In this document: positions 11,288-59,659 of the stretch, in pieces
Position numbering within the stretch: the stretch's first letter is position 1
Layout of the letters: every line of letters starts with the position of its first letter
Origin: Rhodothermales bacterium
Lineage (GTDB): Bacteria > Bacteroidota > Rhodothermia > Rhodothermales > Bin80
NCBI GenBank assembly: GCA_958296045.1
Contig: CATQHT010000003.1
Coordinates: 2,666,814-2,730,813 of the forward strand
Length of the DNA: 64,000 nucleotides
Direction of reading: 5' to 3'
Position numbers and translations under genes: made by a program
Notes under the pieces: generated by a model
What the model was told of the DNA's origin: nothing
Seen by the model: only the letters and a program-made list of their open reading frames with translations
Database searches by the model: none

Positions 11288-12949
11288 CTACGTCACCTGC
11301 AAATAATACGATCCCCTGCCTCGTCCTTCTCGCTTGAGTACACCCTCGTCAACGAGGGTAGAAAGCAACCTGGTGGCCTGAGGCGCGCTCAACATGCACA
11401 GATCAATGACATTAGCCCGGCGGATCGTCTTGTTGTCGGCGATAAACCCCAGTATCATCTGGGTATGCTGCAACTTGTTGAACCCCGCAAGCCGCGTGTA
11501 ATGCTCCGGCTTCCGGGTGCGCTTATAGACCTCAGGGCTTAGAACATACCCACGTCCTGTTTTCGTTCCCAACGCTCGAACTAACCCAATCTCAACTAGA
11601 TGCTCTAGAATGCCGCGAGCTCGCGGCAGATCCTTCTGGAGGACCGTAGCAACGGCTTGGCTGTCGGTACGACGGACTACGCGCAAATGAGACAACGCCA
11701 ACAGGTTGTCTATGGGCATGCTCGTCCCGAGCCGCTTTTCCTCCTGCATAACCATTTTCAGGAATTCCAGGTCCGCTGGCGTACAGCTCAATTCTGCCAC
11801 GACCGAAGTCGAGTCGCTTCGCGTATAGTCGGGTTGTGGACGCCCGTAACGGAGCAGCCACTCGTAAATCCGGTCAACGCCTCTCCCAGTACGCTCGGCC
11901 ATCCCGATACGCTTGAATGCATCTGCGAGAACTGGATTGCGAGGTCTGGGCTCCGTGACCAGAAGATTGTCTAGGCGCACCCCATCCACGAAGCCTCCAG
12001 GATTGCTGACGGTCACACACTCTGACGTCCAGCGAATATGAACCGCTCCCAACTTCGCATAGTCGCGGTGCGTCAGTGCATTAACAACACATTCCCGAAA
12101 CGCTTGGCTGCTCAGCGAGGGCACAGGTACCCTAAAGAACCCGACCTGTATCTCCTCTTCCATCACCCGAGCCTGGTAGAACTGTTCGATCTGCTCGTAC
12201 AGGCGGACCAGCGGCCATCGATAGAAGTCGTTTGCGCGCACATCCGTTCCATCGAGATGCTGCAGGGCTACCTCATGCGTAGGAAGGTGCCGCCGCAATG
12301 CGCTTTCTTTCCCGACAAGAAGCAGACCGGCTACCGTAGGCAGACGAAGGTCACCTACCGTGGTCGTAAGGCCCAGCGCGCCGTCAAGCTCCTCGTCGCT
12401 TAGGCGGAGGAGGGACTCTTCTCCCCGATACTCCTGGATCGCATCGCGGAGACGCACACGCTCAACCGGATTAAGGTCATCTAACGACGAACCGTCTACC
12501 GTAAACGCGGAATAGTCCACCTTACGCAAGTCTGATGCTCGGCTCACGAATTCGGCAGGCAGAAAAGGTACACACTGCGGCATGCCGTTGGCCTGAAGGC
12601 GGCGCCGCAGGACCGTACCACCGGAAGTCGCAACGATACGGTCTGACTTTGGCACGCTAACGACCGCGACCTGTTTATTACCTTTGCTCAAGGACTCAAT
12701 CCGAACACTCAGCGGCGGAAGCGTCTGATTAGCAATAATGCCAGCCAGACTTTGACCATTGGGGCGATCCATATGAAGGCCGGTCGCTCTGCCATCGTTC
12801 TCTACACCCAGGTAGATCTGCCCTCCTTCAGCGTTTGCCAGACATACTGCTGCCCGTGCAAGCGCGTCGTCCTTAAGCTTGTTGCGGTCGCTCTTGAATT
12901 CAATCGTAAGGGACTCCCGGTCGGGTACGCGCGGTAACATGGGACGCAA
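11288..12949 (-). CDS. AlbA_2 (Schlafen-like) DNA-binding domain + HATPase_c_4 ATP-binding protein (RecG-like putative regulator)
   Basis: N-terminus ESLTIEFKSDRNKLKDDALARAAVCLANAEGGQIYLGVENDGRATG fits the AlbA_2 pattern. AFRECVVNALTHRDYAKLGAVHIRWTSECVTVSNPGGF fits the HATPase_c_4 pattern. The C-terminus is winged-helix-like. Confidence 0.75.
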   Translation of the reverse strand: MRPMLPRVPDRESLTIEFKSDRNKLKDDALARAAVCLANAEGGQIYLGVENDGRATGLHMDRPNGQSLAGIIANQTLPPLSVRIESLSKGNKQVAVVSVPKSDRIVATSGGTVLRRRLQANGMPQCVPFLPAEFVSRASDLRKVDYSAFTVDGSSLDDLNPVERVRLRDAIQEYRGEESLLRLSDEELDGALGLTTTVGDLRLPTVAGLLLVGKESALRRHLPTHEVALQHLDGTDVRANDFYRWPLVRLYEQIEQFYQARVMEEEIQVGFFRVPVPSLSSQAFRECVVNALTHRDYAKLGAVHIRWTSECVTVSNPGGFVDGVRLDNLLVTEPRPRNPVLADAFKRIGMAERTGRGVDRIYEWLLRYGRPQPDYTRSDSTSVVAELSCTPADLEFLKMVMQEEKRLGTSMPIDNLLALSHLRVVRRTDSQAVATVLQKDLPRARGILEHLVEIGLVRALGTKTGRGYVLSPEVYKRTRKPEHYTRLAGFNKLQHTQMILGFIADNKTIRRANVIDLCMLSAPQATRLLSTLVDEGVLKREGRGRGSYYLQVT

Positions 12950-14649: not shown

Positions 14650-17600
14650 CTACCGTGTCACTATGATCGGCTCCATCATGGCCTTCGAACCTGCATTCAC
14701 GCGCAGAAAGTATAGACCACCAGCCATCGCTCCCAGATCTAGCTGTAGCGTGTGAAGACCACCAGCCTGCTCACGGTCCACCAGCACCATCATGCGCTGC
14801 CCGAGCATGTTGAAAAGCTCCACGCGAACCGGCATCGGCTCTGGCAACGCGTAGCTGATGGTCGTGCGACCAGCGACGGGGTCGGGATAGTTGCCGTATA
14901 GAACCAGCTCCGTGGCGCGCTCAAGGGTGGGTTCCGTGGCGGCGCTTAATACGGTTGCAGTGTGGATGGTCCACGCCTCGCCACTGCCCAACCGGTCGAC
15001 ACTGCCCAAGTCAATGCGAAGCCAGATGTTCTCTCCAGCATAACCGGTAAGGTCAAAGATGGCGGTCTCGTCCCGATTGCCTGCAAAGACGGCTTCTCCA
15101 TGCATAGGAACCGACGCGCCAGGGGTGTACGTCTCGTCATAGCCGCCCATGGGCTCAATAACCTCCCACTGGGCACCATCATTTACGCTAGCTTTGACAT
15201 TGCCGCGGGCCTGATCCAGCATCGCTTCATGGGTCATGCGCAGCGAAATTCGGCTCGCGTTGGCAGGGAGCGCCACCGGGGCCAAAACAATGCTGGACAC
15301 CTGAGAGTGCTCATCGCCGCCGGTCTGAAATCCCCCGTTACCGCTTTGGCGCCACACTCCGGTGACGTTGGCACGCGCAAGCGCTGGAAGCTGCTCAATG
15401 GTGGCAGCCTCAATAACCAGCTCCGGCTCACCCTGCGCGGGGACATACGCGGTGTTCTGATCGAAGTCGCGCACACGAAAACGATAGCGCACCTGGTCTC
15501 CCAACTGAAGAGCCTCCGAAATCGGAAAGTCCCCCGCAAAGCGGGTCACATCCGCCGTATTCATGGCTAGGCGCACCGTGCCAGAGGTCGAGGCGCCAAC
15601 CTGTGGCACAAAAGTGTATGCGGCCAGCACCGACTCAATGCCCGTGTTGTCTGACGCTACAAGGTGCACACCCGGCGCTGCGGAACCATGGGGGATATGG
15701 ACCAGTGGCTCAAAGGTGGTGTGCACCACAGGCGCGTCGTCTTCTCGTGGACGCTCTTCTAGAATGCGGATGCCATCGATGGCCCATCCCGCAAAGTCGT
15801 GCGCCGATGAATGTGTGTTGCCGGTGTCTGTGCCCGACTCGATGCGCACCATGAGGCTGGGGACCTGCGGCAAAGGAAATAGCACACGGCGCCAGCCGTA
15901 ACTGTATCCCGCAAAGGCGGGTTCACCATTTAGCGGGTTGCCCGCATCCAGCGTCGCACCATAGCCGCCCTCGGGGTGCAGCACGGACCAAGTCAGACCG
16001 CCATCGGTGGATGCCTTGACGTTACCGCCGTCAAAGGCGGTACCTCCGGTGTTGCTTACCGGATCGGTGATACCGCTGTGCTCCAGGTCGTGCCAGTGCC
16101 AAAGCTCCAGCCACACGCCCGCATAGTATGTGAGGTCAATGGTGGGGATCTTCAGCATGCTTATTGACGCCTGGTCCGTGTAGGGTTCGCCGTCGGCCGT
16201 CATCCAGGCAAATTCGCCTGAGCGGGAGGCCTCCAGCCCGAAGGCTGGCCTGACACGACGCCATTGTCCATCCGCTGGCAGCAGTGGGTCCCCATCCGCG
16301 GTATACGATGCCAGGATGCCGGGTTCAATCATATAGATCGAGAAAGGCCGCACATCAGCTGGCGGCAGCGCGCCCTCATTGCGGTAGTTGGTCAGATCAT
16401 TCGCCCAGATGCGATAATCGATGCGCGTCTTGATCGGCAGGTTCATGGGAGGGAACCGCCCCGTATAGCGGTCCCCTGTTTCTACAAGTGCAAATTTCTG
16501 GACCGGATCCCGCGAACTGTCTGCGTACACCACCTGAAATTCCACCCAGGACTCTCGTACGCCCACATCGTCGGTGATGGTGGCCTCTATGGTCGGTGGC
16601 CACGCCGCCTGCGTCACATGCGTCAGATAGGCATGTGTGATCTCCGGCGCCGTGAAGTCTTCGGTGATTGGCACGGTGAATACCTCTTGTGGCGCATTGG
16701 CGGGGAGCCTTGTCGTGTCGCCATTAGTCTGGTCGACCTCAAAGTAGTAGCGGATCGTCTCCGCGCCAGGCGGGAGCGCGATCGCGTAGGAATACGTGTT
16801 GTCGTCTACGCGCTGCATCGCTGCTGCCGTCCGCGGATCGTCGTCTAACGCATATTGTACTGTGTGACTGACAAGATCATCGGCGCACGACATGGAGGTC
16901 AGTTCTACCACGTGCGGTGATCCATCGTCGTTGGCGAAGTTCGCGGACTGGTGACCAAGCGTCGGGGCGACCTGCCCGCAATCGACGTAGCCGCGATCAT
17001 TGAGGATCGTGCGCATGTCCGCACTGTGGGCGCCTTGGTACCGGTCCTGGTCGGCCTGCAGCAGCGCTTCGGCCGCATCGGCGAAGGTAACTCCCGGGCT
17101 CAGGTAGCCGTGAGAGATGAGATTCAGCTGATCCACCTTTTCTTTGCCGATCGCATCATATATCTGCATCAATGAAGTGGCCCAGATCAGCCCGTCGGCG
17201 TAAATGTTGCAGGTAGGGTTGCCACCCACACACGTAAAGCCACTCGGATAGGTGGCGGTGGAGCCGAGACGACGCCCTGACCAGGTCTCATTGCCGTCCC
17301 AGTCGAAGACCTGCTGCCAATCCTGGCCCTGCACCTGGGACGCATCCATAAGCCCGCGGGTAAAAGACGTGGCCCAATAGTCACTCCAGCCTTCATGAAG
17401 CGCTGCTCCCTCGCCACTGAACAGGTTGGCGCTGCTCGATTCCAGAACAGCATGCCCGTATTCGTGCACCACCACCTCGGCGTCCTCCGCATCGTCTATC
17501 CCTCCGTCGCCAAACTGGATGGTGTTCTGGGCGGGCGAGTATGACGCGTTGTCCTGCGGACCTAGGCCGTGAGGGTTGGCACGGATGCTTCCCCCCTGGA

Positions 17601-18807
17601 TCGGCCGTCCTATGTCGAGAGACCGGATGTAGCGCTGGACTAGGTCCACATGGTAATAGACCAGGACCGCCTCAAAATGCTGATTGGCTCGCAGGTACTG
17701 AAAATCGTCCGCGTTGTCTTCTGCCGGCGTATTGTAGCTGTAGCCGCCAGCCGACCCGTCGATACTCACATGCGGTCCACGTAGCCGGTACTTGCTGTCT
17801 GACCCCAGCTCAATGTCGAGCAAGGTAACCTGTTGGCGCTCATCATTGAGCGCGTTGGAATTCTGGTCATTGTTGTCCACGTAGTCACCCCCGTAGGAGA
17901 CGCCTGCACTTGTCAAAGGGTCGGGGATCCATACCTGCCCGATGCCGTCTACGCGCCCGATAGCAACAACGTCGTTTGCATGGGCATGACCATGAGAATA
18001 GGCCGAATCGTCGATGTGCATGATCTGACCCGGCTTGTGCCACATCACGCGGTCGAGCAGGTGAATCACCGCGCCGGACTGCGCATCCAGCAGCACTTCC
18101 CATTCGCCGGGGGTGTTCTCAGGCCATGCGATGACGCGCCATGCCAGAACAGGCACGGCAAGTGGATGCACGACAAGTTCAGGCTCCGAAGAGGAAGCGC
18201 CCGACTCTGATACGTGCGCTTGGGCGAGGGACCGCGCCTGATCCTGTGACACCGCTGGCGTAACATCTAACGACCGTGCATCCCTCACGTGCGGGGCGTA
18301 GGTGCTCAGTACCATGGTGGGCCGCCCTTCAGGTCCCAGGTTCACCTTAACGGCACGCCGATGGACCGGCACGCCGCGATAGGTCTGGGTGAAGGTGAGG
18401 TGCGTGGAGTACGAGGTGTTAACTTCCTCGGTGAGCACAAGGTCTTCTCCGGTAGTCCATCCGAACCGGTCGGCGTTTGCTTCCATCCATGCGCGCGCGG
18501 TCAGCTCCGGCGAGGCAAGCACTGGCGTCGTGGCCCTGATACGGTATGCGGCGCGCCACACGCCGCTGTCGGAGTCTAGTCGTCCACCCGCCACACGACG
18601 ATGGTTGAACTGCAAGGTGGGATCGAAATCCCGCACCAACGGTCGGGAGGATTCCGGCAGCAGCCCCCGCGCATCTGCGCGCTTTTGCGCATCCGCTGGC
18701 GATGCTATTATCATACACGCCGCTGCGAGGAGCAATAGCGGTAAGGATCGGAACCTGATCGTCGTTGGCATCATGACGCTGGTAAGCTGGTCAAAAAATA
18801 ACAGCAT
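14650..18807 (-). CDS. secreted M36 (fungalysin-like) zinc metallopeptidase with T9SS C-terminal sorting domain
   Basis: Signal peptide. The zinc site VVHEYGHAV is followed by HEGWSDYW (M36 EGWSD motif). There are large repeated beta-rich domains. The C-terminus YPDPVAGRTTISYALPEPMPVRVELFNMLGQ...GLYFLRVNAG is a Por/T9SS sorting domain. Confidence 0.8.
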   Translation of the reverse strand: MLLFFDQLTSVMMPTTIRFRSLPLLLLAAACMIIASPADAQKRADARGLLPESSRPLVRDFDPTLQFNHRRVAGGRLDSDSGVWRAAYRIRATTPVLASPELTARAWMEANADRFGWTTGEDLVLTEEVNTSYSTHLTFTQTYRGVPVHRRAVKVNLGPEGRPTMVLSTYAPHVRDARSLDVTPAVSQDQARSLAQAHVSESGASSSEPELVVHPLAVPVLAWRVIAWPENTPGEWEVLLDAQSGAVIHLLDRVMWHKPGQIMHIDDSAYSHGHAHANDVVAIGRVDGIGQVWIPDPLTSAGVSYGGDYVDNNDQNSNALNDERQQVTLLDIELGSDSKYRLRGPHVSIDGSAGGYSYNTPAEDNADDFQYLRANQHFEAVLVYYHVDLVQRYIRSLDIGRPIQGGSIRANPHGLGPQDNASYSPAQNTIQFGDGGIDDAEDAEVVVHEYGHAVLESSSANLFSGEGAALHEGWSDYWATSFTRGLMDASQVQGQDWQQVFDWDGNETWSGRRLGSTATYPSGFTCVGGNPTCNIYADGLIWATSLMQIYDAIGKEKVDQLNLISHGYLSPGVTFADAAEALLQADQDRYQGAHSADMRTILNDRGYVDCGQVAPTLGHQSANFANDDGSPHVVELTSMSCADDLVSHTVQYALDDDPRTAAAMQRVDDNTYSYAIALPPGAETIRYYFEVDQTNGDTTRLPANAPQEVFTVPITEDFTAPEITHAYLTHVTQAAWPPTIEATITDDVGVRESWVEFQVVYADSSRDPVQKFALVETGDRYTGRFPPMNLPIKTRIDYRIWANDLTNYRNEGALPPADVRPFSIYMIEPGILASYTADGDPLLPADGQWRRVRPAFGLEASRSGEFAWMTADGEPYTDQASISMLKIPTIDLTYYAGVWLELWHWHDLEHSGITDPVSNTGGTAFDGGNVKASTDGGLTWSVLHPEGGYGATLDAGNPLNGEPAFAGYSYGWRRVLFPLPQVPSLMVRIESGTDTGNTHSSAHDFAGWAIDGIRILEERPREDDAPVVHTTFEPLVHIPHGSAAPGVHLVASDNTGIESVLAAYTFVPQVGASTSGTVRLAMNTADVTRFAGDFPISEALQLGDQVRYRFRVRDFDQNTAYVPAQGEPELVIEAATIEQLPALARANVTGVWRQSGNGGFQTGGDEHSQVSSIVLAPVALPANASRISLRMTHEAMLDQARGNVKASVNDGAQWEVIEPMGGYDETYTPGASVPMHGEAVFAGNRDETAIFDLTGYAGENIWLRIDLGSVDRLGSGEAWTIHTATVLSAATEPTLERATELVLYGNYPDPVAGRTTISYALPEPMPVRVELFNMLGQRMMVLVDREQAGGLHTLQLDLGAMAGGLYFLRVNAGSKAMMEPIIVTR

Positions 18808-22521: not shown

Positions 22522-23243
22522 ATGGTGAGAATCGAAGCCAGCACATCCACGCTTATCGCCGTGTTCATGATCGCGGCTGCATGCTCTTCTGCTGCATTCG
22601 CGTACGGCCAAGATGCGGCCCAATGGGACGTGACCGCGCCGCTTGGCCCGGTAAAGACTGTGGAATTCTCGACCAGCGAAGGCACATGGATGAACCTCGA
22701 TGTCAGCCCGGAAGGGACTGAAATTGTCTTTGACCTCCTCGGAGACCTGTACGTGCTCCCCATCGAAGGTGGCCAAGCGCGGCTGCTATTGGGAGGTCCC
22801 GCCTTCGACATCCAGCCCCGCTACAGTCCCGACGGCAAGCACATCGCCTTCACCAGCGACCGTGCCGGCGGCGATAACCTTTGGATCGTCAGCCGGGACG
22901 GTACCGACACCACGCAGGTGACCAAAGAGGCTTTTCGCCTGGTCAACGGGCCCGCTTGGACACCGGATGGCAAGTACCTCCTGGGCCGCAAGCACTTCAC
23001 CAGTACCCGCTCTTTGGGGGCTGGCGAGGTATGGATGTATCACATCTCTGGGGGCGCCGGGCTGCAGCTGACCAAGAAGAAGAATTCGCAGCAAGACCAG
23101 GGCAATGAGATTGCGCTCAGTCCCGATGGTCGCTACGTATACTTCAGCGAAGACATCAGTGGCGGTAGCACCTTTCAGTACAACAAGGATCCGCACGGCC
23201 GCATCTATGCCATTCAGCGGTTGGATCGAGTTACAGGCAAGGT
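22522..23243 (+). pseudogene. TolB-like propeller/amidohydrolase gene, segment 1 of 3 (cut by an IS)
   Basis: The signal peptide MVRIEASTSTLIAVFMIAAACSSAAFA is followed by PD40/TolB-like repeats (YSPDGKHIAFTSDRAGGDNLWIV, WTPDGKYLLG). The reading frame runs into the IS inverted repeat at 23244. Confidence 0.8.
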
Positions 23244-23281
23244 CTGCCCTTTACCCATATCGCGACCTAGTCTGACGACTT

Positions 23282-23864
23282 CGATGGCGCCAAAGGGCCC
23301 CCCGCCGCTATCAAGGAGGTCTTCGGCGGCTTCGTGCAGGTGCAGCGCTGCTGTTGGCACAAGCGGGAAAACGTCGTGGCCCACATGAGCAAAGAAGATA
23401 AGCTCGTATATCGGGCGCGCCTGCAGAAAGCCTATCACATTCCAGACTACAGAGACGCGAAGGCGGAAGTCCTATCGATCAAGGACGACCTGGAAGCCTC
23501 CAACCAACTCAAGGCCATGAAGAGTCTGGAGGAAGGCATGGAGGACACGCTCACGATCCAAAGGCTCGCAATAGCCAAAGAGCTCGGCCAAAGCCTGCGC
23601 ACCACCAACTGTATGGAGAATCTCAATAGTACCCTCGGCAGATTGACGCGCAATGTTTGCAGTTGGAACAACTCGGCACAGGTCCACTGCTGGATGGCGC
23701 TGGCTCTCATGTATGCAGAACCCAAACTGAAAACCATCCCCAATCACCAACACCTGCTCAAGCTCCGAAAGGCGCTTATGAAGGTCAGGGCCCGACTGCC
23801 AAACCCCAAAATCCCCTTCTCCCCCCAGCGGGTGCCTTGGACCTATCTTCAGGCCCAGCAATAG
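23282..23864 (+). pseudogene. IS256 (Mutator) family transposase, C-terminal half only
   Basis: DGAKGPPAAIKEVFGGFVQVQRCCWHKRENVVAHMSKEDK...LRTTNCMENLNSTLGRLTR matches the IS256 pattern DGxxGLxxAI...QRCxxHKxRN...TTNxxExLN. The N-terminal half is absent. Confidence 0.75.
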
Positions 23865-24055
23865 TGCTCAGTTCGCGGCGATGAGTGATCATGCGGAGCA
23901 CCCTTGCTGACTTTTTGCACTTCGCCGCTCGTAAGGTTTCGACATGCCGTCACTCAATGTGCGTTCAGACTTGCATTAGAGGTATCCACTGCTTACGATG
24001 CCAGTGCTGCTCCGTGGTGGCGTGCCTCTGGCTCGTGCGTCGATGCGCGACAGGG

Positions 24056-26368
24056 TCAAGAAAGTATGCTGCTCCCATGGCCATAGTCGCAACCAAGCCC
24101 TTCTCGATACGCTGCCGGCAGTATTTCGTACCCAAAGCAAATGGTGGATAGTCGCTCTAATCCGCGCCACATGATCTGAAAGCCGGGCGGTCCATCGCGA
24201 GTTCGATTCTGATAGCCGCCCATTACTGCTACTAGCAGAAGCGCCGCTTCCAGGGTGCGGGGTACCGGCAGCTTCACGTTCTTAGCATAAAAGGAGAGAG
24301 CAATCAACTGCATCGGGGAGAATATCAGCTCGGCATCTAATCCAGGGACGGCACGCCCCAGTAAGGTGAGCATCATGACATAGCAGGCGATCACGCAGTA
24401 CACCGCCAACCCACGTTCCAGGCGCGCTGCCGAACGCATCGCCATGCGTTCCACCTTACAGCCACTCTTGAGCACACGGAAAAAGTCTTCAACACGCCAT
24501 CGCCGGGTATAATAAGTCAGGATCTGCACCGCTTCTTCTGCGCTGTGCACCGCCATACTGGTCAGCAGATACCATTCCACCGCCTTCTCTCCCTTCGGGG
24601 GCGCGATCTCCCGGACATGCACGCCGTACATCGCTACGGATCCCCCTTGCCGCTGCGTGGCGGGCAGCTGTACGCAATGGTAGCGTACCTCGGCTCGGGC
24701 AATACGGTGACTACGTCCGTGGCGCACCTTCTTCCTGGAAGACTTCGGACGCGCCGTGACCCGTTGGATCTCTATCCGCACCTTCGCTGCGGCAGGACCG
24801 CTGCGAAGCGTCGCAAACAGCTTTTTATTCTTCGCCAGTCTCCGGTCATGACGGGCGCGGACCAGGAGTTCCACGCGATCCTGTGCCCGCTGGGCGGCAA
24901 ATAGCGCAAAGTTATCCGCCTCCCGGTCCATCACGCAGATGAGGCGACACTGCTTGGGAATCTCCTCTGCTGCTTCGCAGATGTCCAGAAATCCGTCTAA
25001 CCACTGCTGCGATCGAGGTTTGAGCGGTCCCGTATCTGGATCCCGATAACTACAACGTAATATCCCCAGGGGCAGGCCATCGGTAGTAGTAACCAGCGTG
25101 GCATGAAGGGGCATCCCACGGGATTTTGCTTTCGTCTGGTTGGTACCTATGACCTGCAAGTCTTCACAGGCGGGTCGCGTGCTGAAATTCAGCTTGGTGG
25201 TATCCTGTATGCAGAGTACCGCCTTCTGACTCCGTATCCGCTCAATCGTACGTTTGCGATGCGGCGCCAGCATGTTTTCGGGTGTTACGTCGGTCTGCTT
25301 GCTGCTCAGAAGCCGGTAATGGGCCTTCACCGCCGCCCTATCATGGCTTATATGGGAGCATATAGGCTTTCCTATCACATCGGCCAACAACGATGCGCTC
25401 TTCACCAGCCGCGTGGACAGCCGCCTGTCTCCCAGCGGAGCATCTCCGAACTCTGCCTCAACCCAGTCGTCCATGCCTTCGTGCGGTTGCCTGACCGGAC
25501 GCAGCGCCACCTCGGGTACGCCCAAGTACGAGCGCCACCGGCGGTCCACTTCGTACATGAACAAGGCCTTCGGCGCTTCTTCTTTGGAATGTGCGTGGCG
25601 CTTGCCCCCAGCAGTATAGCCGATGGACAGAAAATTGGCCGCCTTCAAGCACGTACCTTTCCATGGAGGTTCCACATACGTTTCTATCAACCAGGGGTGG
25701 TATCCATAAAGCGCATAACAGTCGTCAGATAACTGCTTCAACACCCTGCCGAGTACGTGACTGGCCAGGTATTTGCAAGTGCCGCGTATCAGAAAGCGGC
25801 TCAAACAGAAGATGCGGTGGAGGTGCGCTTGGCGTTGGGCATCGCTCCATGCCATGAAGTGTTCCCTTGCGGCCAAGCGCAAGGCCGGGGCGGAAAAACC
25901 TACCGCGCCCAGATATCCATGCGCGCTCACTACCAGGTACCGCAGCTGGGCACCAACAAGGGTGGTCGTACCACGAGGATGCTCATGGTGCAGCAGGGTA
26001 TTCCACACCGCACGCTGTGCTGCGGTCCGAACTCTTACTACTGCAAGACCTTCCACCTCACCCAAAGTCGCGGGCATCGCCACCGGTGGAGCAACCGCCT
26101 CGTCCAACAGGCGGGGCGACGCCTGCGCAGCATGATTGTTGAGCGGTGCTGGCAGTGTGATCTCACCCCGTGCCTCCAGCTTCAAGAGGGCTTTCGCGCA
26201 GGTAGCTACCTGTGCCCTGCCTTTGGCATCTACAAATCCAAAGTCCTCACATACACGGCGCGCAATCGCGGTGCGATTGGGAAGGCTCTCGTCAGAAAGC
26301 CTCTTCTTCAAGCGAATGCGCCCCCGGGGAGCACTGAGAGTCCGCAAAACCTGATTCTGCTCGAACAT
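24056..26368 (-). CDS. fusion transposase: N-terminal DUF4338 (DruA-like) domain + Tn5/IS4-type DDE transposase
   Basis: 770-aa intact ORF. The N-terminal part GAQLRYLVVSAHGYLGAVGFSAPALRLAAREHFMAWSDAQR...CLSRFLIR...GYHPWLIETYVEPPWKGTCLKAANFLSIGYTAGGKR fits my memory of the DUF4338 pattern. The C-terminal part has Tn5-like DDE regions (LCIQDTTKLNF, ICVMDREADNF, YYTRRWRVEDFFRVLKSGCKVE). Confidence 0.8.
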   Translation of the reverse strand: MFEQNQVLRTLSAPRGRIRLKKRLSDESLPNRTAIARRVCEDFGFVDAKGRAQVATCAKALLKLEARGEITLPAPLNNHAAQASPRLLDEAVAPPVAMPATLGEVEGLAVVRVRTAAQRAVWNTLLHHEHPRGTTTLVGAQLRYLVVSAHGYLGAVGFSAPALRLAAREHFMAWSDAQRQAHLHRIFCLSRFLIRGTCKYLASHVLGRVLKQLSDDCYALYGYHPWLIETYVEPPWKGTCLKAANFLSIGYTAGGKRHAHSKEEAPKALFMYEVDRRWRSYLGVPEVALRPVRQPHEGMDDWVEAEFGDAPLGDRRLSTRLVKSASLLADVIGKPICSHISHDRAAVKAHYRLLSSKQTDVTPENMLAPHRKRTIERIRSQKAVLCIQDTTKLNFSTRPACEDLQVIGTNQTKAKSRGMPLHATLVTTTDGLPLGILRCSYRDPDTGPLKPRSQQWLDGFLDICEAAEEIPKQCRLICVMDREADNFALFAAQRAQDRVELLVRARHDRRLAKNKKLFATLRSGPAAAKVRIEIQRVTARPKSSRKKVRHGRSHRIARAEVRYHCVQLPATQRQGGSVAMYGVHVREIAPPKGEKAVEWYLLTSMAVHSAEEAVQILTYYTRRWRVEDFFRVLKSGCKVERMAMRSAARLERGLAVYCVIACYVMMLTLLGRAVPGLDAELIFSPMQLIALSFYAKNVKLPVPRTLEAALLLVAVMGGYQNRTRDGPPGFQIMWRGLERLSTICFGYEILPAAYREGLGCDYGHGSSILS

Positions 26369-26520
26369 GCTGCTATAGTAAGCAACACGACTTACAATGT
26401 CAAGTGGTCCCTATGGGCCGGGGGCAGACCTGAGCACTATTGCTGGGCCTGAAGAGAGGTCCAATGCACCCGCAGAGTCGTCAGACTAGGTCGCGATATG
26501 GGTAAAGGGCAGGGCAAGGT

Positions 26521-27091: not shown

Positions 27092-27797
27092 GTGCGCCAG
27101 GCTAACTGGTGCCAGTACAGGGAGTGAAAGTCTCCCGATGTGAAGGACTAACCATCCACGCATCTCCTCGAGCCGTGCGTCGGTACCCGCGAGGGTGCAG
27201 GCGAAGCGTCGGTAGAGGTGCGGGTGGGCAGGGCTAATGAGCACCGAAAATGTCATCGTCCGGGACGCCGAGGGTTTCTTCGTGGTCGAAGGCAACACCT
27301 TCTTTGCCGTTAATGGTGAGGCGGAGGAGGGTCCCGCGGTGTCCAAGAACCCAGGCACGCACGTACGTACTGCATCGGGACCTGGGAGGTCTCTCCACTA
27401 CCCATCCCTTCGGGGAGGGTCGCCAAAGCGTAGGCTAAATGCCGATCGGAGGATGTACGGTGGAGAGAAGTCAGATGCGACCATAGTAGCTATGAAGCCA
27501 GCGAACAACGCGTGGATGACCACGGGGCGGAGCCGGTGGAGCCAAGGGTCGCACCCAAGGGGAAAGCGGGAAGCTGGATTCATGCCGGACTCTGGGCTGG
27601 ATTACGTGGATCTGTCCAAGAGCTGTGGACTCAGTGCCACAGTCGGGGCGCAGGTGTACCGCTTACGGCTGGAGGTGGGGTTTCCCCACTTCCTAACGTC
27701 ATGCGCGGGAGCGCGACCTGCGGGAAGAGCCGTGTGCGTTAACGCGCACGCACGGATCTGTGCGGGGCCCCAGGGGAAACCCTGGGGCTACCGCGAT
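27092..27797 (+). mobile_element. group II intron, ORF-less (intron-encoded protein deleted)
   Basis: 5' GUGCGCC. Domain V is at 27727-27758 (GAGCCGUGUGCGUUAACGCGCACGCACGGAUC, with the AGC triad and AC bulge). Domain VI is GCCCCAGGG-GAAA-CCCUGGGGC with an unpaired A at 27790, 7 nt before the 3' end ..AU. Removal leaves the exons in frame. Confidence 0.8.
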
Positions 27798-37705: not shown

Positions 37706-38828
37706 TCAGTTCGTGGGGCTTCCCGCCTCTCGCAGGAGCATAGCGCCTCTGAAAATAATATTGATCGAGGCATACAGGTAACGACCAATAGCCTTTGCGC
37801 AACGATTGCACATGTACTTCCTTACCTGCAGCGTGATGTTCTCAGCGGGTAGTCGTCTGCAGCCACTATACTGTTGTTCAGCGACAATTAGAATTGCGGG
37901 GCGGCATGTGCACGAAGGTGCCCTCTCGCTCTGTTTTATAGGTAAGTGGTTGTATTACCAGCCCCAAGGCTTGGTCCAGTATGGTACGGTTCTGACCACG
38001 CTTGCGAGCGCCCCCATTGCGGGTCAGGTTGGCATCCTGCAGGTCTTCGCATGCAACGGTGCCGGTCTCCCAATCGATATCCGCTGTGATGTTGGGTCCC
38101 GTTGCATTGCGGTGCGATCCTGAAGGATTCCCTGTATCCAGCTACCTTGGCCTTCTCCCTGTACTTGCTTTTTCCTGAGTGCACGTCATCCTGCGTGGCC
38201 ACTTGATGCCCTTGCGTTCATCCGAACGTAAGGGCACGTACTGCACGCCCTTGTGCCACGTGCAATGAGCCTTCAGGCCAGGATCGATGCCAATAGGTCT
38301 GTCCTCGCACGACCCTTCGGCTAAGACTTCCTGCTCGTAGATTACCTGTACCTCAATGCCGCTGCTAACCGGAATGCGCTTTGTCCGCACATGTCTTACC
38401 GGGACATCGTTTCAAGAGGTCGCAGTAGTCGTCAAAGTACAGCTTGTCGACACGCTTCACCTGACCGACCACTTGCCGTTTTGCTCCTGCTGCACTTCCT
38501 GCTGTTCGAAGGTGATGACGTACTCGCCAAACCTGGGAAATTTGCCCAATGGCTTGAGAGCCTGCGTCTAGCCTCTTCAAACCCGACGACCCACACTCCA
38601 CTGCGCCCTACGTGCAAAGCTGGCTTCATAGTCCGGTCCTTTGACCAATATCTTCAGCCACCTGCACGGGTCATAGTCACTCAGACGCTTTTCGCCCTGC
38701 CTATACCGGGCCTAGCAATACCCCTTCATCTGGTCGTGCAGCGACCTCAGGTGGCTCCAGTAATGGCCAAGCTCGGCTCGTTTGGCCTTACTTAGTCCGG
38801 TGACACGATAGGTCCGCGTCTTCACCAT
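37706..38828 (-). pseudogene. TnpB (IS200/IS605 OrfB, RNA-guided nuclease family), multiply frameshifted
   Basis: Pieces across frames: MVKTRTYRVTGLSKAKRAELGHYW, RPIGIDPGLK, GKSKYREKAKVAG, ARKRGQNRTILDQALG..YKTEREGTFVHMPPRNSNCR, YMCNRCAKAIGRYLYASINIIFRG. No intact frame and no adjacent tnpA. Confidence 0.65.
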
Positions 38829-39011
38829 GCTAAGGCGTCCAACGATCACATCGCACCAGAGCACCATGGTCCTGTCAGTTGATACACATAATTCCCAGGT
38901 AAGGACGAATAGCTAGGGGCTATCTCACGCCTGCCTTGGAGTAGCCTTCTTGACAAGCCAAGCCGTAGCCAATCTCCTCGTCTGGATGAGTAGGCGCGCT
39001 GCAGATCTAGC

Positions 39012-39527
39012 CTACAGGCGCGTGGCCTGCTCCAGATAAAAATAAATCCCTGCTATTACGCCGATGGCGGAGATGACCGAGAATCCGATACCGATCAGCC
39101 ATTTGGTCAAGCGAAACTGCCTATCGGTCATCTGCATTAATGTGGTAAGCTGGTTTTGTTGGGCATCGAACTTGGTAGTCATCTCCGCTTTCTGAGCATC
39201 GAACTTGGTAGTCATCTCCGCTTGCTGGGCATCCAACTTGGCAGTTACCTCCGCTTTATGGGCGTCGAACTTGGTAGTTATTTCTGTCCTAAGCGCAGCT
39301 ATCTGGGCATCGAACTTGGTAGTCATTTCTGTCCTAAGCGCAGCTATCTGGGCATTTAGGGCCTCTAATTTCGTTTCGAAGCGGTGAATGAGCTTGGCGG
39401 AAGCCATCTTTTCCAAGAGCTTGATCAGTAGGTGAGCGTCTCGTCCGCTGCTGCCGGAACGTCGGAGAAGGTCGAAAAGTAGCGCGCCGTCAGGATCCTG
39501 GTGTCCGCTGTGTTGGTCGTCGGGCAA
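39012..39527 (-). CDS. tail-anchored coiled-coil protein (DUF1640-like), array copy 1, 171 aa
   Basis: ALLFDLLRRSGSSGRDAHLLIKLLEK, then two 15-residue and three 11-residue repeats (Q[KQ]AE[MV]T[TA]K[FL]DA), then the C-terminal TM LIGIGFSVISAIGVIAGIYFYL. This copy has a TTG start. Confidence 0.7.
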   Translation of the reverse strand: MPDDQHSGHQDPDGALLFDLLRRSGSSGRDAHLLIKLLEKMASAKLIHRFETKLEALNAQIAALRTEMTTKFDAQIAALRTEITTKFDAHKAEVTAKLDAQQAEMTTKFDAQKAEMTTKFDAQQNQLTTLMQMTDRQFRLTKWLIGIGFSVISAIGVIAGIYFYLEQATRL

Positions 39528-39731
39528 GCATGCTCTCTACCGTCAGCAGCAACGGTGGTTCCGCAGCGTGGACAAGCCAATGTGGTGAATCCAACGGTGC
39601 TGCGTATATCCACGCAAAACGGCCAGTGGGTCCGACGGAATTCTGCCACCTGATCCGAGATATATCTACCCCTGGCTGCATCCTGGTCAGGGTGCGTATG
39701 ATGATCTGCCAGAAGGGCGAAATGGGGCAGG

Positions 39732-40115
39732 TTATATCGGGTCACTGCTGGCTATCGCGGGAATGGCGGGCCCTTCTGTGGTGCGCTGCCAAAGTACGGC
39801 TTCATTGGGACGCGTCACACACTGTGATAGCCGAACAGGGCAAGGCATCGGTGTTGTTCTGCCGTTGGAAGGGGGGCTTGCGGGCGAATCTGACACATCA
39901 TAATGCGGCTCCAGAAGGAAAAACATCGCCAGCGAAGCCAAAGACGCCAGGAGGCCCCCGGCCACAGTCACCGCAAGCCCCCACAAGAAGTCTCCCCCGT
40001 CAGGTAACACCAGAAGCGGCAGCATGGCAGCTGCCACCGAGGCGAGCGCGGCCTTGCTTAGTCCGGCGACACCATAGGTCTGCGTCCTCACCATGCCAAG
40101 GTGTCCAACGATCAC
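39732..40115 (-). CDS. possible small 2-TM membrane protein whose first ~15 codons derive from tnpB (array copy 1, stop lost)
   Basis: MVRTQTYGVAGLSKAA (compare tnpB MVKTRTYRVTGLSKAK), then LASVAAAMLPLLVL and LWGLAVTVAGGLLASLASLAMFFLL. Coding status is uncertain. Confidence 0.25.
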   Translation of the reverse strand: MIVGHLGMVRTQTYGVAGLSKAALASVAAAMLPLLVLPDGGDFLWGLAVTVAGGLLASLASLAMFFLLEPHYDVSDSPASPPSNGRTTPMPCPVRLSQCVTRPNEAVLWQRTTEGPAIPAIASSDPI

Positions 40116-40280
40116 ATCCGCACCTGAGTACCATGATCCTGTCAGCTGGCAAACTATAATTCCCAGGTAACGACCAATAGCTGGGGGCTATCTCACGCTT
40201 ATCTTGGAGTAGCCTTCTTGACAAGCCAAGCCGCAGCCAATCTCCTCGTCTGGATGAGTTAGGCGCGCTGCAGACCTAGC

Positions 40281-40763
40281 CTACAGGCGCGTGGCTTGCT
40301 CCAGGTAAAAGTAAATTCCTGCTATCACGCCGATGGCGGAGATGACCGAGAATCCGATACCGATCAGCCATTTGGTCAAGCGAAACTGCCTATCGGTCAT
40401 CTGCATTAATGTGGTAAGCTGGTTTTGTTGGGCATCGAACTTGGCAGTCATCTCCGCTTTCTGGGCATCCAACTTGGCAGTTACCTCCGCTTTCTGGGCA
40501 TCGAACTTGGTAGTTATTTCTGTCCTAAGCGCGGCTTTCTGGGCATCGAACTTGGTAGTTATCTCTGCCCTAAGCGCAGCTATCTGGGCATTTAGGGCCT
40601 CTAATTTCGTTTCGAAGCGGTGAATGAGCTTGGCGGAAGCCATCTTTTCCAAGAGCTTGATCAGTAGGTGAGCGTCTCGTCCGCTGCTGCCGGAACGTCG
40701 GAGAAGGTCGAAAAGTAGCGCGCCGTCAGGATCCTGGTGCTCGCTGTGTTGGACGTCGGACAT
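40281..40763 (-). CDS. tail-anchored coiled-coil protein (DUF1640-like), array copy 2, 160 aa
   Basis: Same architecture as copy 1 with two 11-residue repeats. ATG start. Confidence 0.75.
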   Translation of the reverse strand: MSDVQHSEHQDPDGALLFDLLRRSGSSGRDAHLLIKLLEKMASAKLIHRFETKLEALNAQIAALRAEITTKFDAQKAALRTEITTKFDAQKAEVTAKLDAQKAEMTAKFDAQQNQLTTLMQMTDRQFRLTKWLIGIGFSVISAIGVIAGIYFYLEQATRL

Positions 40764-41093
40764 GCATGCTCTCTACCGTCAGCAGCAACGGTGGCTCCGC
40801 AGCGTGGACATACCAATGTGGTGAATCCAAAGGTGCTGCGTATATCCACGCAAAACGACCAGTGGGTCCGACGGAATTCTGCCACCTGGTCCGAGATATA
40901 TCTACCCCTGGCTGCATCCTGGTCAGGGTGCGTATGATGACCTGCTAGAAGGGCGATATGGGGCAGGTTATATCGGGTCACTGCTGGCTATCGCGGGAAT
41001 GGCGAGCCCTTCTGTGGTGCGCTGCTAAAGTACGGCTTCATTGGGACGCGTCACACACTGTGATAGCCGAACATGGCAAGGCATCGGTGTTGT

Positions 41094-41351
41094 TCAGCCG
41101 TTGGAAGGGGGGCTTGCGGGCGAATCTGACACATCATAATGCGGCTCCAGAAGGAAAAACATCGCCAGCGAAGCCAAAGCCGCCAGGAGGCCCCCGGCCA
41201 CAGTCACCGCAAGCCCCCACAAGAAGTCTCCCCCGTCAGGTAACACCAGAAGCGGCAGCATGGCAGCTGCCACCGAGGCGAGCGCGGCCTTGCTTAGTCC
41301 GGCGACACCATAGGTCTGGGTCCTCACCATGCCAAGGTGTCCAACGATCAC
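41094..41351 (-). CDS. possible small 2-TM membrane protein (array copy 2, 85 aa)
   Basis: Same as 39732-40115 but ends ...SPPSNG*. The unit-3 counterpart (42255-42570) needs a frameshift. Confidence 0.3.
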   Translation of the reverse strand: MIVGHLGMVRTQTYGVAGLSKAALASVAAAMLPLLVLPDGGDFLWGLAVTVAGGLLAALASLAMFFLLEPHYDVSDSPASPPSNG

Positions 41352-41516
41352 ATCCGCACCTGAGTACCATGATCCTGTCAGCTGGCAAACTATAATTCCC
41401 AGGTAACGACCAATAGCTGGGGGCTATCTCACGCTTATCTTGGAGTAGCCTTCTTGACAAGCCAAGCCGCAGCCAATCTCCTCGTCTGGATGAGTTAGGC
41501 GCGCTGCAGACCTAGC

Positions 41517-41966
41517 CTACAGGCGCGTGGCTTGCTCCAGGTAAAAGTAAATCCCTGCTATCACGCCGATGGCGGAGATGACCGAGAATCCGATACCGAT
41601 CAGCCATTTGATTAAGCGAAACTGCCTATCGGTCATCTGCATTAATGTGGTAAGCTGGTTTTGTTGGGCATCGAACTTGGCAGTTACCTCCGCTTTATGG
41701 GCATCGAACTTGGTAGTTATTTCTGTCCTTAGCGCAGCTATCTGGGCATCGAACTTAGTAGTCATCTCTGTCCTTAGCGCAGCTATCTGGGCATTTAGGG
41801 CCTCTAATTTCGTTTCGAAGCGGTGAATGAGCTTGGCGGAAGCCATCTTTTCCAAGAGCTTGATCAATAGGTGAGCATCTCGTCCGCTGCTGCCAGACCG
41901 CCGGAGAAGGTCGAAAAGTAGCGCGCCGTCAGGATCCTGGTGCTCGCTGTGTTGGTCGCCGGACAT
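41517..41966 (-). CDS. tail-anchored coiled-coil protein (DUF1640-like), array copy 3, 149 aa
   Basis: Same architecture with one 11-residue repeat. The N- and C-terminal parts are nearly identical to copies 1 and 2, although the flanking DNA is much more diverged. Confidence 0.75.
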   Translation of the reverse strand: MSGDQHSEHQDPDGALLFDLLRRSGSSGRDAHLLIKLLEKMASAKLIHRFETKLEALNAQIAALRTEMTTKFDAQIAALRTEITTKFDAHKAEVTAKFDAQQNQLTTLMQMTDRQFRLIKWLIGIGFSVISAIGVIAGIYFYLEQATRL

Positions 41967-42665
41967 GCATGCCTTCTACCGTCAGCAGCAATGGTGGTTC
42001 CGTAGCGTGGACAAGCCAATGTGGTGAATCCAAAGGTGCAGCGTATTTCCATGCAAAACGACCAGTGGATCCGATTCAATGCGGCCACCTGATCCGAGAT
42101 ATATCGACCACTGGCTGCATCCTGTTCGGGGTACGTAGGATGATCTGCCAGATGGGCAGGTTGGGGCAAGTTGTATCGGGTCACTATTCGCTATCGCGCG
42201 TGTTGGCGGACCCCTCTCTGGTGCGCTGCCAAAATACAGCTTCATTGGGACGCGTCACACACTGTGATAGCCGAACAGGGCAAGGCCTCGGTGTTGTTCA
42301 GCCGTTGGAAGGGACACTTGCGGGCGAATATGGCACACCCAGCCGCGGCCGCAGAAAAGATAACATCGCCACCAAAGCCAGAGGCGACAGGAGCGTGGAC
42401 GCCAGGAGTCCCCAGTCACAGTCATCGCGAGGCCCCCATCCCCCATGGAGAAGTCGCCCTCGTCCAGAAACACCAGAAGCAGCAGCATGGCAACCACCGA
42501 GGCGATCGTGGCGGCTTTGCGTCCTGCCATCCAGCTTTCTGTCAGGGTCACCACACCCGGAACGGACCACCGGGCAGGATAAGTCCCAGCCCTCTGGCCT
42601 GAGCGCCAGGAATGCTCAAATCGGAACCAACAGACGCGGAAGGGGAGGCCCCTATGTAAGCCAGC

Positions 42666-59582: not shown

Positions 59583-59659
59583 GGGCCCTTAGCTCAGCGG
59601 TTTAGAGCGCTCGCCTCACACGCGAGAGGTCACAGGTTCGAATCCCGTAGGGCCCACCA
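59583..59659 (+). tRNA. tRNA-Val (anticodon CAC), CCA encoded
   Basis: Acceptor stem GGGCCCT/AGGGCCC. D arm AGCTCAGCGGTTTAGAGC. Anticodon stem-loop CTCGC-CTCACAC-GCGAG. T arm GGTTCGAATCC. 3' ACCA. Confidence 0.9.

Follow-up and report, generated by a model that had tools for sequence, protein, structure and literature searches.

The window analysed here is a stretch of 64,000 nucleotides from contig CATQHT010000003.1 of a Rhodothermales bacterium. Between positions 23244 and 26512 it contains an insertion sequence (IS) of 3,269 bp, which is delimited by its termini, its target duplication and the gene that it interrupts, and which is assigned to the IS50 (Tn5-like) subgroup of the IS4 family. 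The transposase gene lies on the minus strand (24056-26368) and is a single uninterrupted open reading frame (ORF) of 770 aa with an ATG start, as had been described earlier; it is identified by the ORF call, by Pfam and NCBIfam matches and by alignment with Tn5 transposase. The distinctive feature of this protein is an N-terminal module with a domain of the DUF4338 family, which is also the family of the Druantia protein DruA. In a confident structural model, this domain is predicted to have a GNAT fold that is closest, among known structures, to that of phage Mu Mom. The interest of the element lies in this Mom-like nature of the DruA domain, for transposon biology as well as for Druantia.

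Four Pfam families match the protein above threshold, PF14236, PF14706, PF01609 and PF02281. The last three fall in the C-terminal part, where residues 300-747 align with residues 14-467 of Tn5 transposase (PDB 1muh, E 2e-38) and residues 349-747 match the NCBIfam IS4 model NF033590 (E 7e-85). The Tn5-type N-terminal DNA-binding domain comprises residues 301-357 (25298-25468, minus strand) and is recognized by PF14706, Tnp_DNA_bind (E 1.5e-9), by NF049926 and by the Tn5 alignment. It is followed by the DDE catalytic core, residues 358-657 (24398-25297, minus strand), which is defined by PF01609, DDE_Tnp_1 (residues 468-657), NF033590 and the same alignment, and by the Tn5 dimerisation domain, residues 659-743 (24140-24394, minus strand), which matches PF02281, Dimer_Tnp_Tn5 (E 1.3e-9). 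All DDE residues are kept (D389, D481 and E627, aligned to D97, D188 and E326 of Tn5), and the YREK signature is complete (Y620, R623, E627 and K634, aligned to Y319, R322, E326 and K333). Residues 300-770 are a complete Tn5-type enzyme with its end-binding, DDE/YREK and dimerisation parts. Since residues 300-747 cover Tn5 transposase from end to end, the approximately 300 extra residues are a true N-terminal addition.

The N-terminal addition consists of two parts. A small basic domain of four helices, possibly winged-helix-like, is seen in AlphaFold models at residues 1-75 (26144-26368, minus strand), and the DUF4338/DruA-family domain occupies residues 106-285 (25514-26053, minus strand), as delineated by PF14236, AlphaFold, Foldseek and hhalign. 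The PF14236 match covers residues 107-234, with an E-value of 3.3e-19 and a score of 69.6 bits, where the cutoff is 27. It is well above threshold, yet it is partial and corresponds only to positions 49-182 of the 297 in the profile. The initial annotation, which was made from the sequence alone, had read the ORF as a Tn5/IS50-type transposase with about 300 additional N-terminal residues, had recognized DUF4338 motifs in these residues and had named PF14236, PF01609 and PF02281 as the families to be checked; all of this is borne out, with PF14706 in addition. The motifs are GAQLRYLV...FMAWS at residues 139-175, RFLIR at 191-195 and ETYVEPPWKGTCLKAANFLSIGYTAGGKR at 229-257, and in the family alignment they coincide with the columns of highest conservation.

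The ends of the element are well defined. The termini, CTGCCCTTTACCCATAT..., are found in inverted orientation at 23244 and 26512, and the element is flanked by two copies of an 8-bp target duplication, GGCAAGGT, which are read from the sequence at 23236-23243 and 26513-26520. The end consensus of the IS50 subgroup is CW------Y---CA-A--W- (PMC2266710); CTGCCCTTTACCCATATCG agrees with it at six of the seven specified positions, while position 19 is a G and not a W. The insertion disrupts a gene for a PD40 beta-propeller/amidohydrolase protein, whose reading frame resumes beyond the element. L005, a metagenome contig of independent origin, matches the element over 3,182 bp with 98% identity and no gaps, and it starts exactly at the IS terminus, as expected for a repeated mobile element. 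Close relatives are present in Rhodothermales genomes, with protein identities of 83% for L001 and 67% for L002. In these relatives the ends are CTGCCsTTTACCCAyA, located 59 nt ahead of the ATG, and the target duplications are 8 bp long (GCCTAGCC in L001). Taken together, the sites of L001, L002 and L003 and the flanks in the window (GCCTAGCC, GGCTAGGT and GGCAAGGT) give a semi-palindromic target preference of approximately GSCWAGSY, which recalls the IS10 hotspot GCTNAGC. A promoter-like site, TTGACA-17-TACTAT, lies at 26375-26403 (minus strand) and is conserved in L001, L003 and L005. It is a consensus match only, and it ends 6 nt before the ATG, which suggests that the transcript may be nearly leaderless.

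Compared with IS50 and Tn5, the element has both common and distinctive features. Its termini start with CTG and agree with the consensus of the subgroup, its target duplication of 8 bp lies within the 8-9 bp of the subgroup, and its transposase has the DNA-binding N-domain and the dimerisation domain as well as the DDE and YREK residues. Unlike IS50 and Tn5, it has the approximately 300 extra N-terminal residues that form the helical domain and the GNAT-fold domain, a long downstream non-coding region and a target preference nearer to the GCTNAGC of IS10. Size also sets it apart from the subgroup, whose members typically measure 1350-1550 bp and encode a transposase of about 476 aa (PMC2266710), whereas the element in the window measures 3,269 bp, its relatives about 2.5-2.6 kb, and the transposase 770 aa. 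On its sequence features, the ORF is the transposase of a genuine insertion sequence of the IS4 family, IS50/Tn5 subgroup.

The two ends of the element share a long inverted repeat. An 83-bp inverted repeat had been noticed earlier as a possible part of end recognition. The repeat is real, and it proves to be 86 bp long at 26427-26512 with a partner at the opposite end that is broken by 547 bp into 23244-23280 and 23828-23874; its proposed part in end recognition is not supported, since the 86-bp sequence repeats the downstream end of the element in inverted orientation and now serves as the upstream terminus (minus strand), as judged from the repeat comparison and the alignment with L001. At the downstream end, the outer 37 bp (23244-23280, plus strand), which include the Tn5-like terminal repeat of about 17 bp, are 100% complementary to 26476-26512 and homologous to the contiguous downstream end of L001. 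The inner 47 bp (23828-23874, plus strand) are 94% complementary to 26427-26473. The 547-bp passenger between them (23281-23827, plus strand) is a fragment from the C-terminal part of an IS256/Mutator-family transposase gene, which matches positions 232-362 of the 379 in PF00872, Transposase_mut, that is, the C-terminal third (E 4.7e-15). This fragment is present in L005 and absent from L001.

L001 has the 86-bp sequence unbroken and at its downstream end only, and its two ends have just the terminal 17 bp or so in common. In the window, a degenerate ancestral upstream terminus, CTGCCCCCGGCCCATA, remains at 26412-26427 (minus strand), 59 nt before the ATG and thus exactly where the relatives have their real end; it is preceded by the target-like sequence GCTCAGGT. 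In the simplest history, the downstream end of one copy of the element would have been the target of a second copy, which inserted in inverted orientation, and transposition would afterwards have used the outer end so created. With such a nested self-insertion as its origin, the long repeat is not needed as a binding platform. A functional binding platform had been entertained for it and was dropped in favour of the nested self-insertion, given relatives with repeats of only about 17 bp. A reading with two nested elements, an IS256-derived one bounded by the outer 37-bp repeats and the Tn5-like one by the inner 47 bp, was also rejected, because the real termini of the relatives are CTGCCsTTTACCCA and because L001 has the contiguous 86 bp downstream.

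The combination of a DUF4338 domain with a Tn5-type transposase is not peculiar to this copy. Most of the best 120 whole-protein homologues, which extend down to 50% identity, have a length of 750-800 aa; PF14236 is combined with Tn5-type transposase domains in every one of the 120, and all four Pfam domains are present in about three quarters of them. The few that carry a name at NCBI are called "IS4 family transposase". Because the architecture is common to all 120, the fusion is neither a one-off event nor a frameshift artefact. When the N-terminal 300 residues are used alone, 4,070 cluster representatives (50% identity clusters) are found at E ≤1e-3, many of them 740-800 aa long; among the best 150 of these N-terminal matches, 44 are at least 680 aa long and the rest are mostly fragments. 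Judged from these homologues, a large and widespread clade of insertion sequences has the fusion as its usual architecture. The relatives have multiple copies per genome. A literature search for DUF4338/PF14236, DruA, GNAT or Mom-like proteins together with transposases found no paper on a fusion of DruA with a Tn5 transposase. No bacterial transposase is better understood than that of Tn5, which is also a major tool in the laboratory, and a large natural clade of the same type with a conserved, selected and enzyme-like front end points to an undescribed accessory activity in transposition.

Some relatives appear to encode the module as a stand-alone protein of about 320 aa, and these are split versions of the same insertion sequence. 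In one of them (L009, 5919-6049) the split lies at an exact 70-bp tandem duplication at the junction of module and transposase. In two others (L010 and L011, 5807-5918) a common 74-nt insertion, which contains a 38-nt repeat, is located at the same boundary. The two duplications are independent, and in both cases the resulting ORFs keep complete domain sets. L010 and L011 are 99.8% identical copies at different loci of one genome, which suggests that the element was still mobile once it had been split. As in the InsA/InsAB' and OrfA/OrfAB systems of IS1 and IS3, the module and the transposase are then encoded by consecutive or overlapping ORFs, so that a free N-terminal protein is possible. 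Unlike those two-product systems, the splits arose from duplications of 70 and 74 nt without a slippery frameshift site, and the N-terminal product is an enzyme-like GNAT module rather than a simple helix-turn-helix.

The module is maintained by selection and is also found on a second type of transposase. Between the window and L001, the ratio of nonsynonymous to synonymous substitution rates (dN/dS) amounts to 0.15 in the N-terminal module (residues 1-300), compared with 0.28 in the transposase part (residues 301-770), and the low value for the module indicates purifying selection; L002, a pseudogene with an ORF of 131 aa, was left out of this comparison. The ISAs1-family transposase WP_216644545.1, of 444 aa (L008, 3908-5242 of NZ_CP020371.1), has an N-terminal DruA/DUF4338 domain (PF14236, E 8.7e-26), and a second, identical copy is located on NZ_CP020372.1. 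Both replicons are plasmids of Candidatus Thiodictyon, the only organism with this fusion among 640 plasmids with ISAs1 matches. By its domain content, ISAs1 is a second transposase family that carries DUF4338.

The structural model provides the basis for comparing the module with known enzymes. The AlphaFold model of residues 1-300 has a mean predicted local distance difference test score (pLDDT) of 88.8, mostly above 90 in the DUF4338 domain, and consists of a four-helix domain (residues 1-66), a linker and an alpha/beta domain (residues 109-282). The strands and helices of the latter follow the GNAT order, beta1-alpha1-alpha2-beta2-beta3-beta4-alpha3-beta5-alpha4-beta6-beta7. Foldseek finds 162 matches in the PDB at E <1e-3, of which the top 50 are all GNAT-fold enzymes; a match to an ordinary Tn5 N-terminal DNA-binding domain was the alternative outcome considered for this comparison in the initial annotation. 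Mom of phage Mu (8bv8_B) has the best TM-score, with a TMt of 0.63 over 204 columns, and the top E-values belong to SpeG-type enzymes. In the viral structure library BFVD, Mom-like and NAT_SF phage proteins lead the list (E 8e-8 to 2.5e-7). The same connection is obtained from profiles, since hhalign aligns the profile of 64 family members with a profile of Mom homologues at E 3e-5 and 73% probability, colinearly over residues 80-300. Among 21 reversed or block-shuffled control profiles, the best score is 23 against 41.5 for the real one, with control E-values of at least 0.02.

The function of DUF4338 had been taken as unknown in the earlier reading of the locus, which is partly out of date, since the domain has already been called a GNAT domain that serves as a variable N-terminal effector on some DndF proteins (PMC10853773). 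The model and the profiles of the present family lead to the same fold by another route. Of the known GNAT enzymes, Mom of phage Mu moves glycine from Gly-tRNA to the N6 of adenine in double-stranded DNA. Its essential residues are H58, Y59, R111, S124, D149, R151 and Y159 (PMC13219725). The residues of the family that correspond to them were taken from the profile alignment at 73% probability, and their conservation was counted in the 64 sequences. The counterpart of H58 is H130 (63 of 64), that of R111 is R191 (all 64), and that of S124 is S203 (60 of 64, with Thr in three more), while D149 corresponds to Asp or Glu at position 233 (51 of 64) and Y159 to Tyr or Phe at position 241 (55 of 64). 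The family and Mom also have the motif ETFVD...G.cY.AANW..vG in common.

Although the two proteins are alike in these respects, each has features of its own. Mom has no counterpart of the family's extra N-terminal helical domain, and its gene is located in a phage late operon, whereas the DUF4338 module is encoded by an insertion sequence. The activity of Mom is a Gly-tRNA-dependent modification of adenine, while that of the module is predicted only. The module is basic (isoelectric point 9.8) and has many conserved arginines. The helical domain in front of it, with helices at residues 4-12, 14-24, 32-43 and 54-66 and pLDDT values of 84-89, is even more basic (isoelectric point 10.5). When residues 1-100 are modelled separately (pLDDT 84), the domain has no significant fold match (best E 0.58); the non-significant matches are winged-helix repressors of the Fur, ArsR and DeoR types, so that a winged-helix assignment is a guess.

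Based on these comparisons, the module may be an accessory acyl- or aminoacyltransferase that acts on nucleic acid and leaves a regulatory or protective mark, rather than an end-recognition device; the probability of this reading is put at roughly 0.45. It is suggested by the near-invariant polar residues at the Mom catalytic positions, by the conserved arginines and by the Mom-like neighbours. In such a scheme the Tn5 part would, by homology, bind the ends of 17-19 bp, build a dimeric synaptic complex, and cut and paste the element with formation of the 8-bp duplications. The module would be catalytically competent and would modify nucleic acid, most likely DNA bases near the transposase, at the element ends or in the donor or target, and the product would be a regulatory or protective mark and not a means of recognizing ends. 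The module would be accessory, and its covalent link to the transposase would not be required; the split-ORF relatives count in favour of such a separable part, and the recurrence of DUF4338 on an ISAs1-type transposase counts in favour of the proposal as a whole. What the modification would be for is speculative: it might control the activity of the ends, or protect the element or its replicon.

Several observations weigh against a nucleic-acid transferase. The protein in the window has L241 where the family has Tyr or Phe at the position of Mom Y159, and the profile alignment gives no clear counterpart of Mom Y59 or R151 in the 64 sequences. The helix-turn-helix-like insertion of Mom (residues 175-209), which is needed for Mom activity, is replaced in the family by a short Arg-rich loop, T-x-G-R-G-R-x-D-R. 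The Pfam model of Mom, PF25680, does not match the window protein at E-values up to 10, although two relatives have weak matches, P0198 and the protein of L007 (E 0.0078 for the latter). When the family alignment was run as a profile against the sequences of the PDB, the only protein recovered was Tn5 transposase, not Mom, and the hhalign probability for the Mom link reaches only the 73% given above. The canonical motif for the pyrophosphate of acyl-CoA, Q/RxxGxG/A, is not evident in the beta4-alpha3 loop; this loop reads R195-G-T-C-K-Y-L-A-S203, with a family consensus of RPxVxCxNLAS, and is nearer to the PRNSES of Mom than to the canonical motif. GNAT substrates, moreover, are not predictable from the fold, according to the authors of the Mom work, and the Aravind group suggested proteins as the likely target of the DndF-fused DUF4338 GNAT domain (PMC10853773).

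The module could instead be an additional DNA-binding device for the ends, the subterminal DNA or the target, in which the GNAT fold is a mere scaffold and which, on its own, could act as an end-binding regulator in the manner of IS1 InsA or IS3 OrfA. The basic character of the module, the leading helical domain with its weak winged-helix repressor neighbours, the target preference of the family and the long inverted repeats of the window copy are in keeping with such a device, as are the split versions, which yield a free N-terminal protein and a transposase as in OrfA/OrfAB. Yet the end-binding domain of the Tn5 part is intact, the relatives have terminal repeats of only about 17 bp, and the long repeat is explained by the nested self-insertion. 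The winged-helix assignment falls short of significance, the splits come from duplications of 70 and 74 nt with no recognisable programmed frameshift site, and near-invariant polar residues at the Mom catalytic positions are hard to reconcile with a scaffold, all of which makes this a rather unlikely explanation. The narrower proposal of the initial annotation, that DUF4338 was recruited for end recognition, is not supported: PF14706 already provides a DNA-binding domain, the predicted fold is that of a GNAT enzyme, the repeats of the relatives are short, and split forms of module and transposase appear to have moved. An end-recognition role is thus less likely. A DNA-directed role of a more general kind is plausible, because the module is basic, because Mom acts on double-stranded DNA and because a helical, possibly winged-helix domain precedes the GNAT domain.

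A target other than nucleic acid would fit the GNAT family at large, most of whose members act on proteins or small molecules. The module might then be a protein acetyltransferase, directed at the transposase itself or at a nucleoid or repair protein of the host, or a sensor of acyl-CoA or charged tRNA that ties transposition to the metabolic state. The SpeG-type enzymes at the top of the Foldseek E-values and the listing of proteins as the likely target of the DndF-fused domain (PMC10853773) are consistent with this, but the nearest structural and profile neighbours are Mom-like enzymes of nucleic acid, the acyl-CoA pyrophosphate-binding motif is not evident, and the many conserved arginines suggest a polyanionic partner, so that such a target is unlikely. 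That the gene is not a transposase of a mobile element at all, but a domesticated Druantia-related defence gene, an accidental fusion or a pseudogene, is extremely improbable. The name of the Pfam family, which was taken from the defence protein DruA, and the NCBI description of the N-terminal fragment P0186 as 'Druantia anti-phage system protein DruA, partial' would favour it. Against it stand the terminal inverted repeats, the target duplication and the interrupted gene, the independent contig L005 that breaks exactly at the terminus, the several copies per genome in relatives, the housekeeping neighbours without druB-E nearby, the lack of a match to the PADLOC DruA models, the intact catalytic residues and the architecture kept across the top 120 homologues.

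The domain in the window is homologous to the DruA domain, a relatedness read only from the Pfam and PADLOC models. The PADLOC models of DruA, PDLC00001 and PDLC00002, do not match the window protein; weak matches are found among the 64 relatives, in 31 with PDLC00002 and in 14 with PDLC00001 (best E 5.6e-7). DruA of type I Druantia is encoded in a druABCDE operon, whereas the domain considered here is joined to a transposase inside a mobile element. No druB, druC, druD or druE helicase gene is located beside the ORF, and no Druantia operon is found in its neighbourhood. The names given to related sequences can cause them to be taken for defence genes. In NZ_CP020372.1, an insertion sequence of the same family (L007, 3938-8710) is cut in two by an IS91 insertion, and RefSeq calls the halves 'DUF4338 domain-containing protein' and 'IS4 family transposase'. 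Where such elements are fragmented or have a split ORF, their N-terminal parts may be named 'DruA' or 'DUF4338 protein', which can inflate the counts of Druantia-like genes in defence surveys.

The earlier suggestion that the fusion could bear on the role of DruA is supported. The link to the Mom branch of the GNAT enzymes gives a testable idea for DruA, the uncharacterised product of the first type I Druantia gene, namely the modification of adenine in DNA. Cells that express type I Druantia are reported to gain a PacBio "m6A" signal at CAGCTGNC, and the system has no methylase domain (preprint 10.1101/2024.04.14.589459); the gene behind the signal was left unassigned in that preprint, whose result is cited in a later one. 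If DUF4338 is Mom-like, DruA becomes the obvious candidate for an N6-adenine modifier, which suggests the hypothesis that it is the missing adenine modifier of type I Druantia. If true, this could explain the apparent adenine marks on host DNA in a system that lacks a methylase. A literature search found no paper that links Druantia with GNAT enzymes or Mom. The sequence CAGCTGNC is not enriched in the window or in the element (19 found, 19 expected). The abutted ends of the insertion sequence (CAG|CTGCC) match the Druantia motif, an observation that was dropped because the match is nearly automatic for ends that begin with CTG.

The most specific form of the proposal combines these ideas. The module would be an active Mom-like enzyme that places an acyl- or aminoacyl-derived group on the N6 of adenine at or near the element and so provides an epigenetic switch or a protective mark borne by the insertion sequence; if the idea is extended to Druantia, the 'm6A' signal at CAGCTGNC would be the work of DruA. 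In this specific form the proposal is doubtful. Dam methylation, at the N6 of adenine, controls IS10 and IS50, whose transposases are close relatives of the one described here. The modifier there is a host enzyme, whereas here it would be encoded by the element, and the comparison is entirely hypothetical.

The genes around the element are those for S-adenosylmethionine (SAM) synthetase, S-adenosylhomocysteine (AdoHcy) hydrolase, a ketoacyl synthase (KAS) and a secreted peptidase, together with the interrupted PD40/amidohydrolase gene. In the same host gene as the insertion sequence lies a group II intron of about 670 nt (27127-27797, plus strand), which is recognized by the Rfam families RF02005 (D1-D4, 27127-27351, 167.9 bits) and RF00029 (D5-D6, 27725-27797, 40 bits) and which is ORF-less, having no reverse-transcriptase ORF. 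A secreted metallopeptidase of 1,385 aa with a type IX secretion sorting tail (Por_Secre_tail) is encoded at 14650-18807 on the minus strand; this protein and the closest relatives of the insertion sequence, which are in Rhodothermales genomes, fit a host from the Bacteroidota/Rhodothermota. Elsewhere in the window, a 553-aa ORF with Schlafen AlbA_2 and HATPase_c_4 domains is located at 11288-12949 (minus strand), a unit of about 1,236 bp is present at 38780-42500 in three tandem copies with 85-97% mutual identity, and a tRNA gene lies at 59583-59656 on the plus strand.

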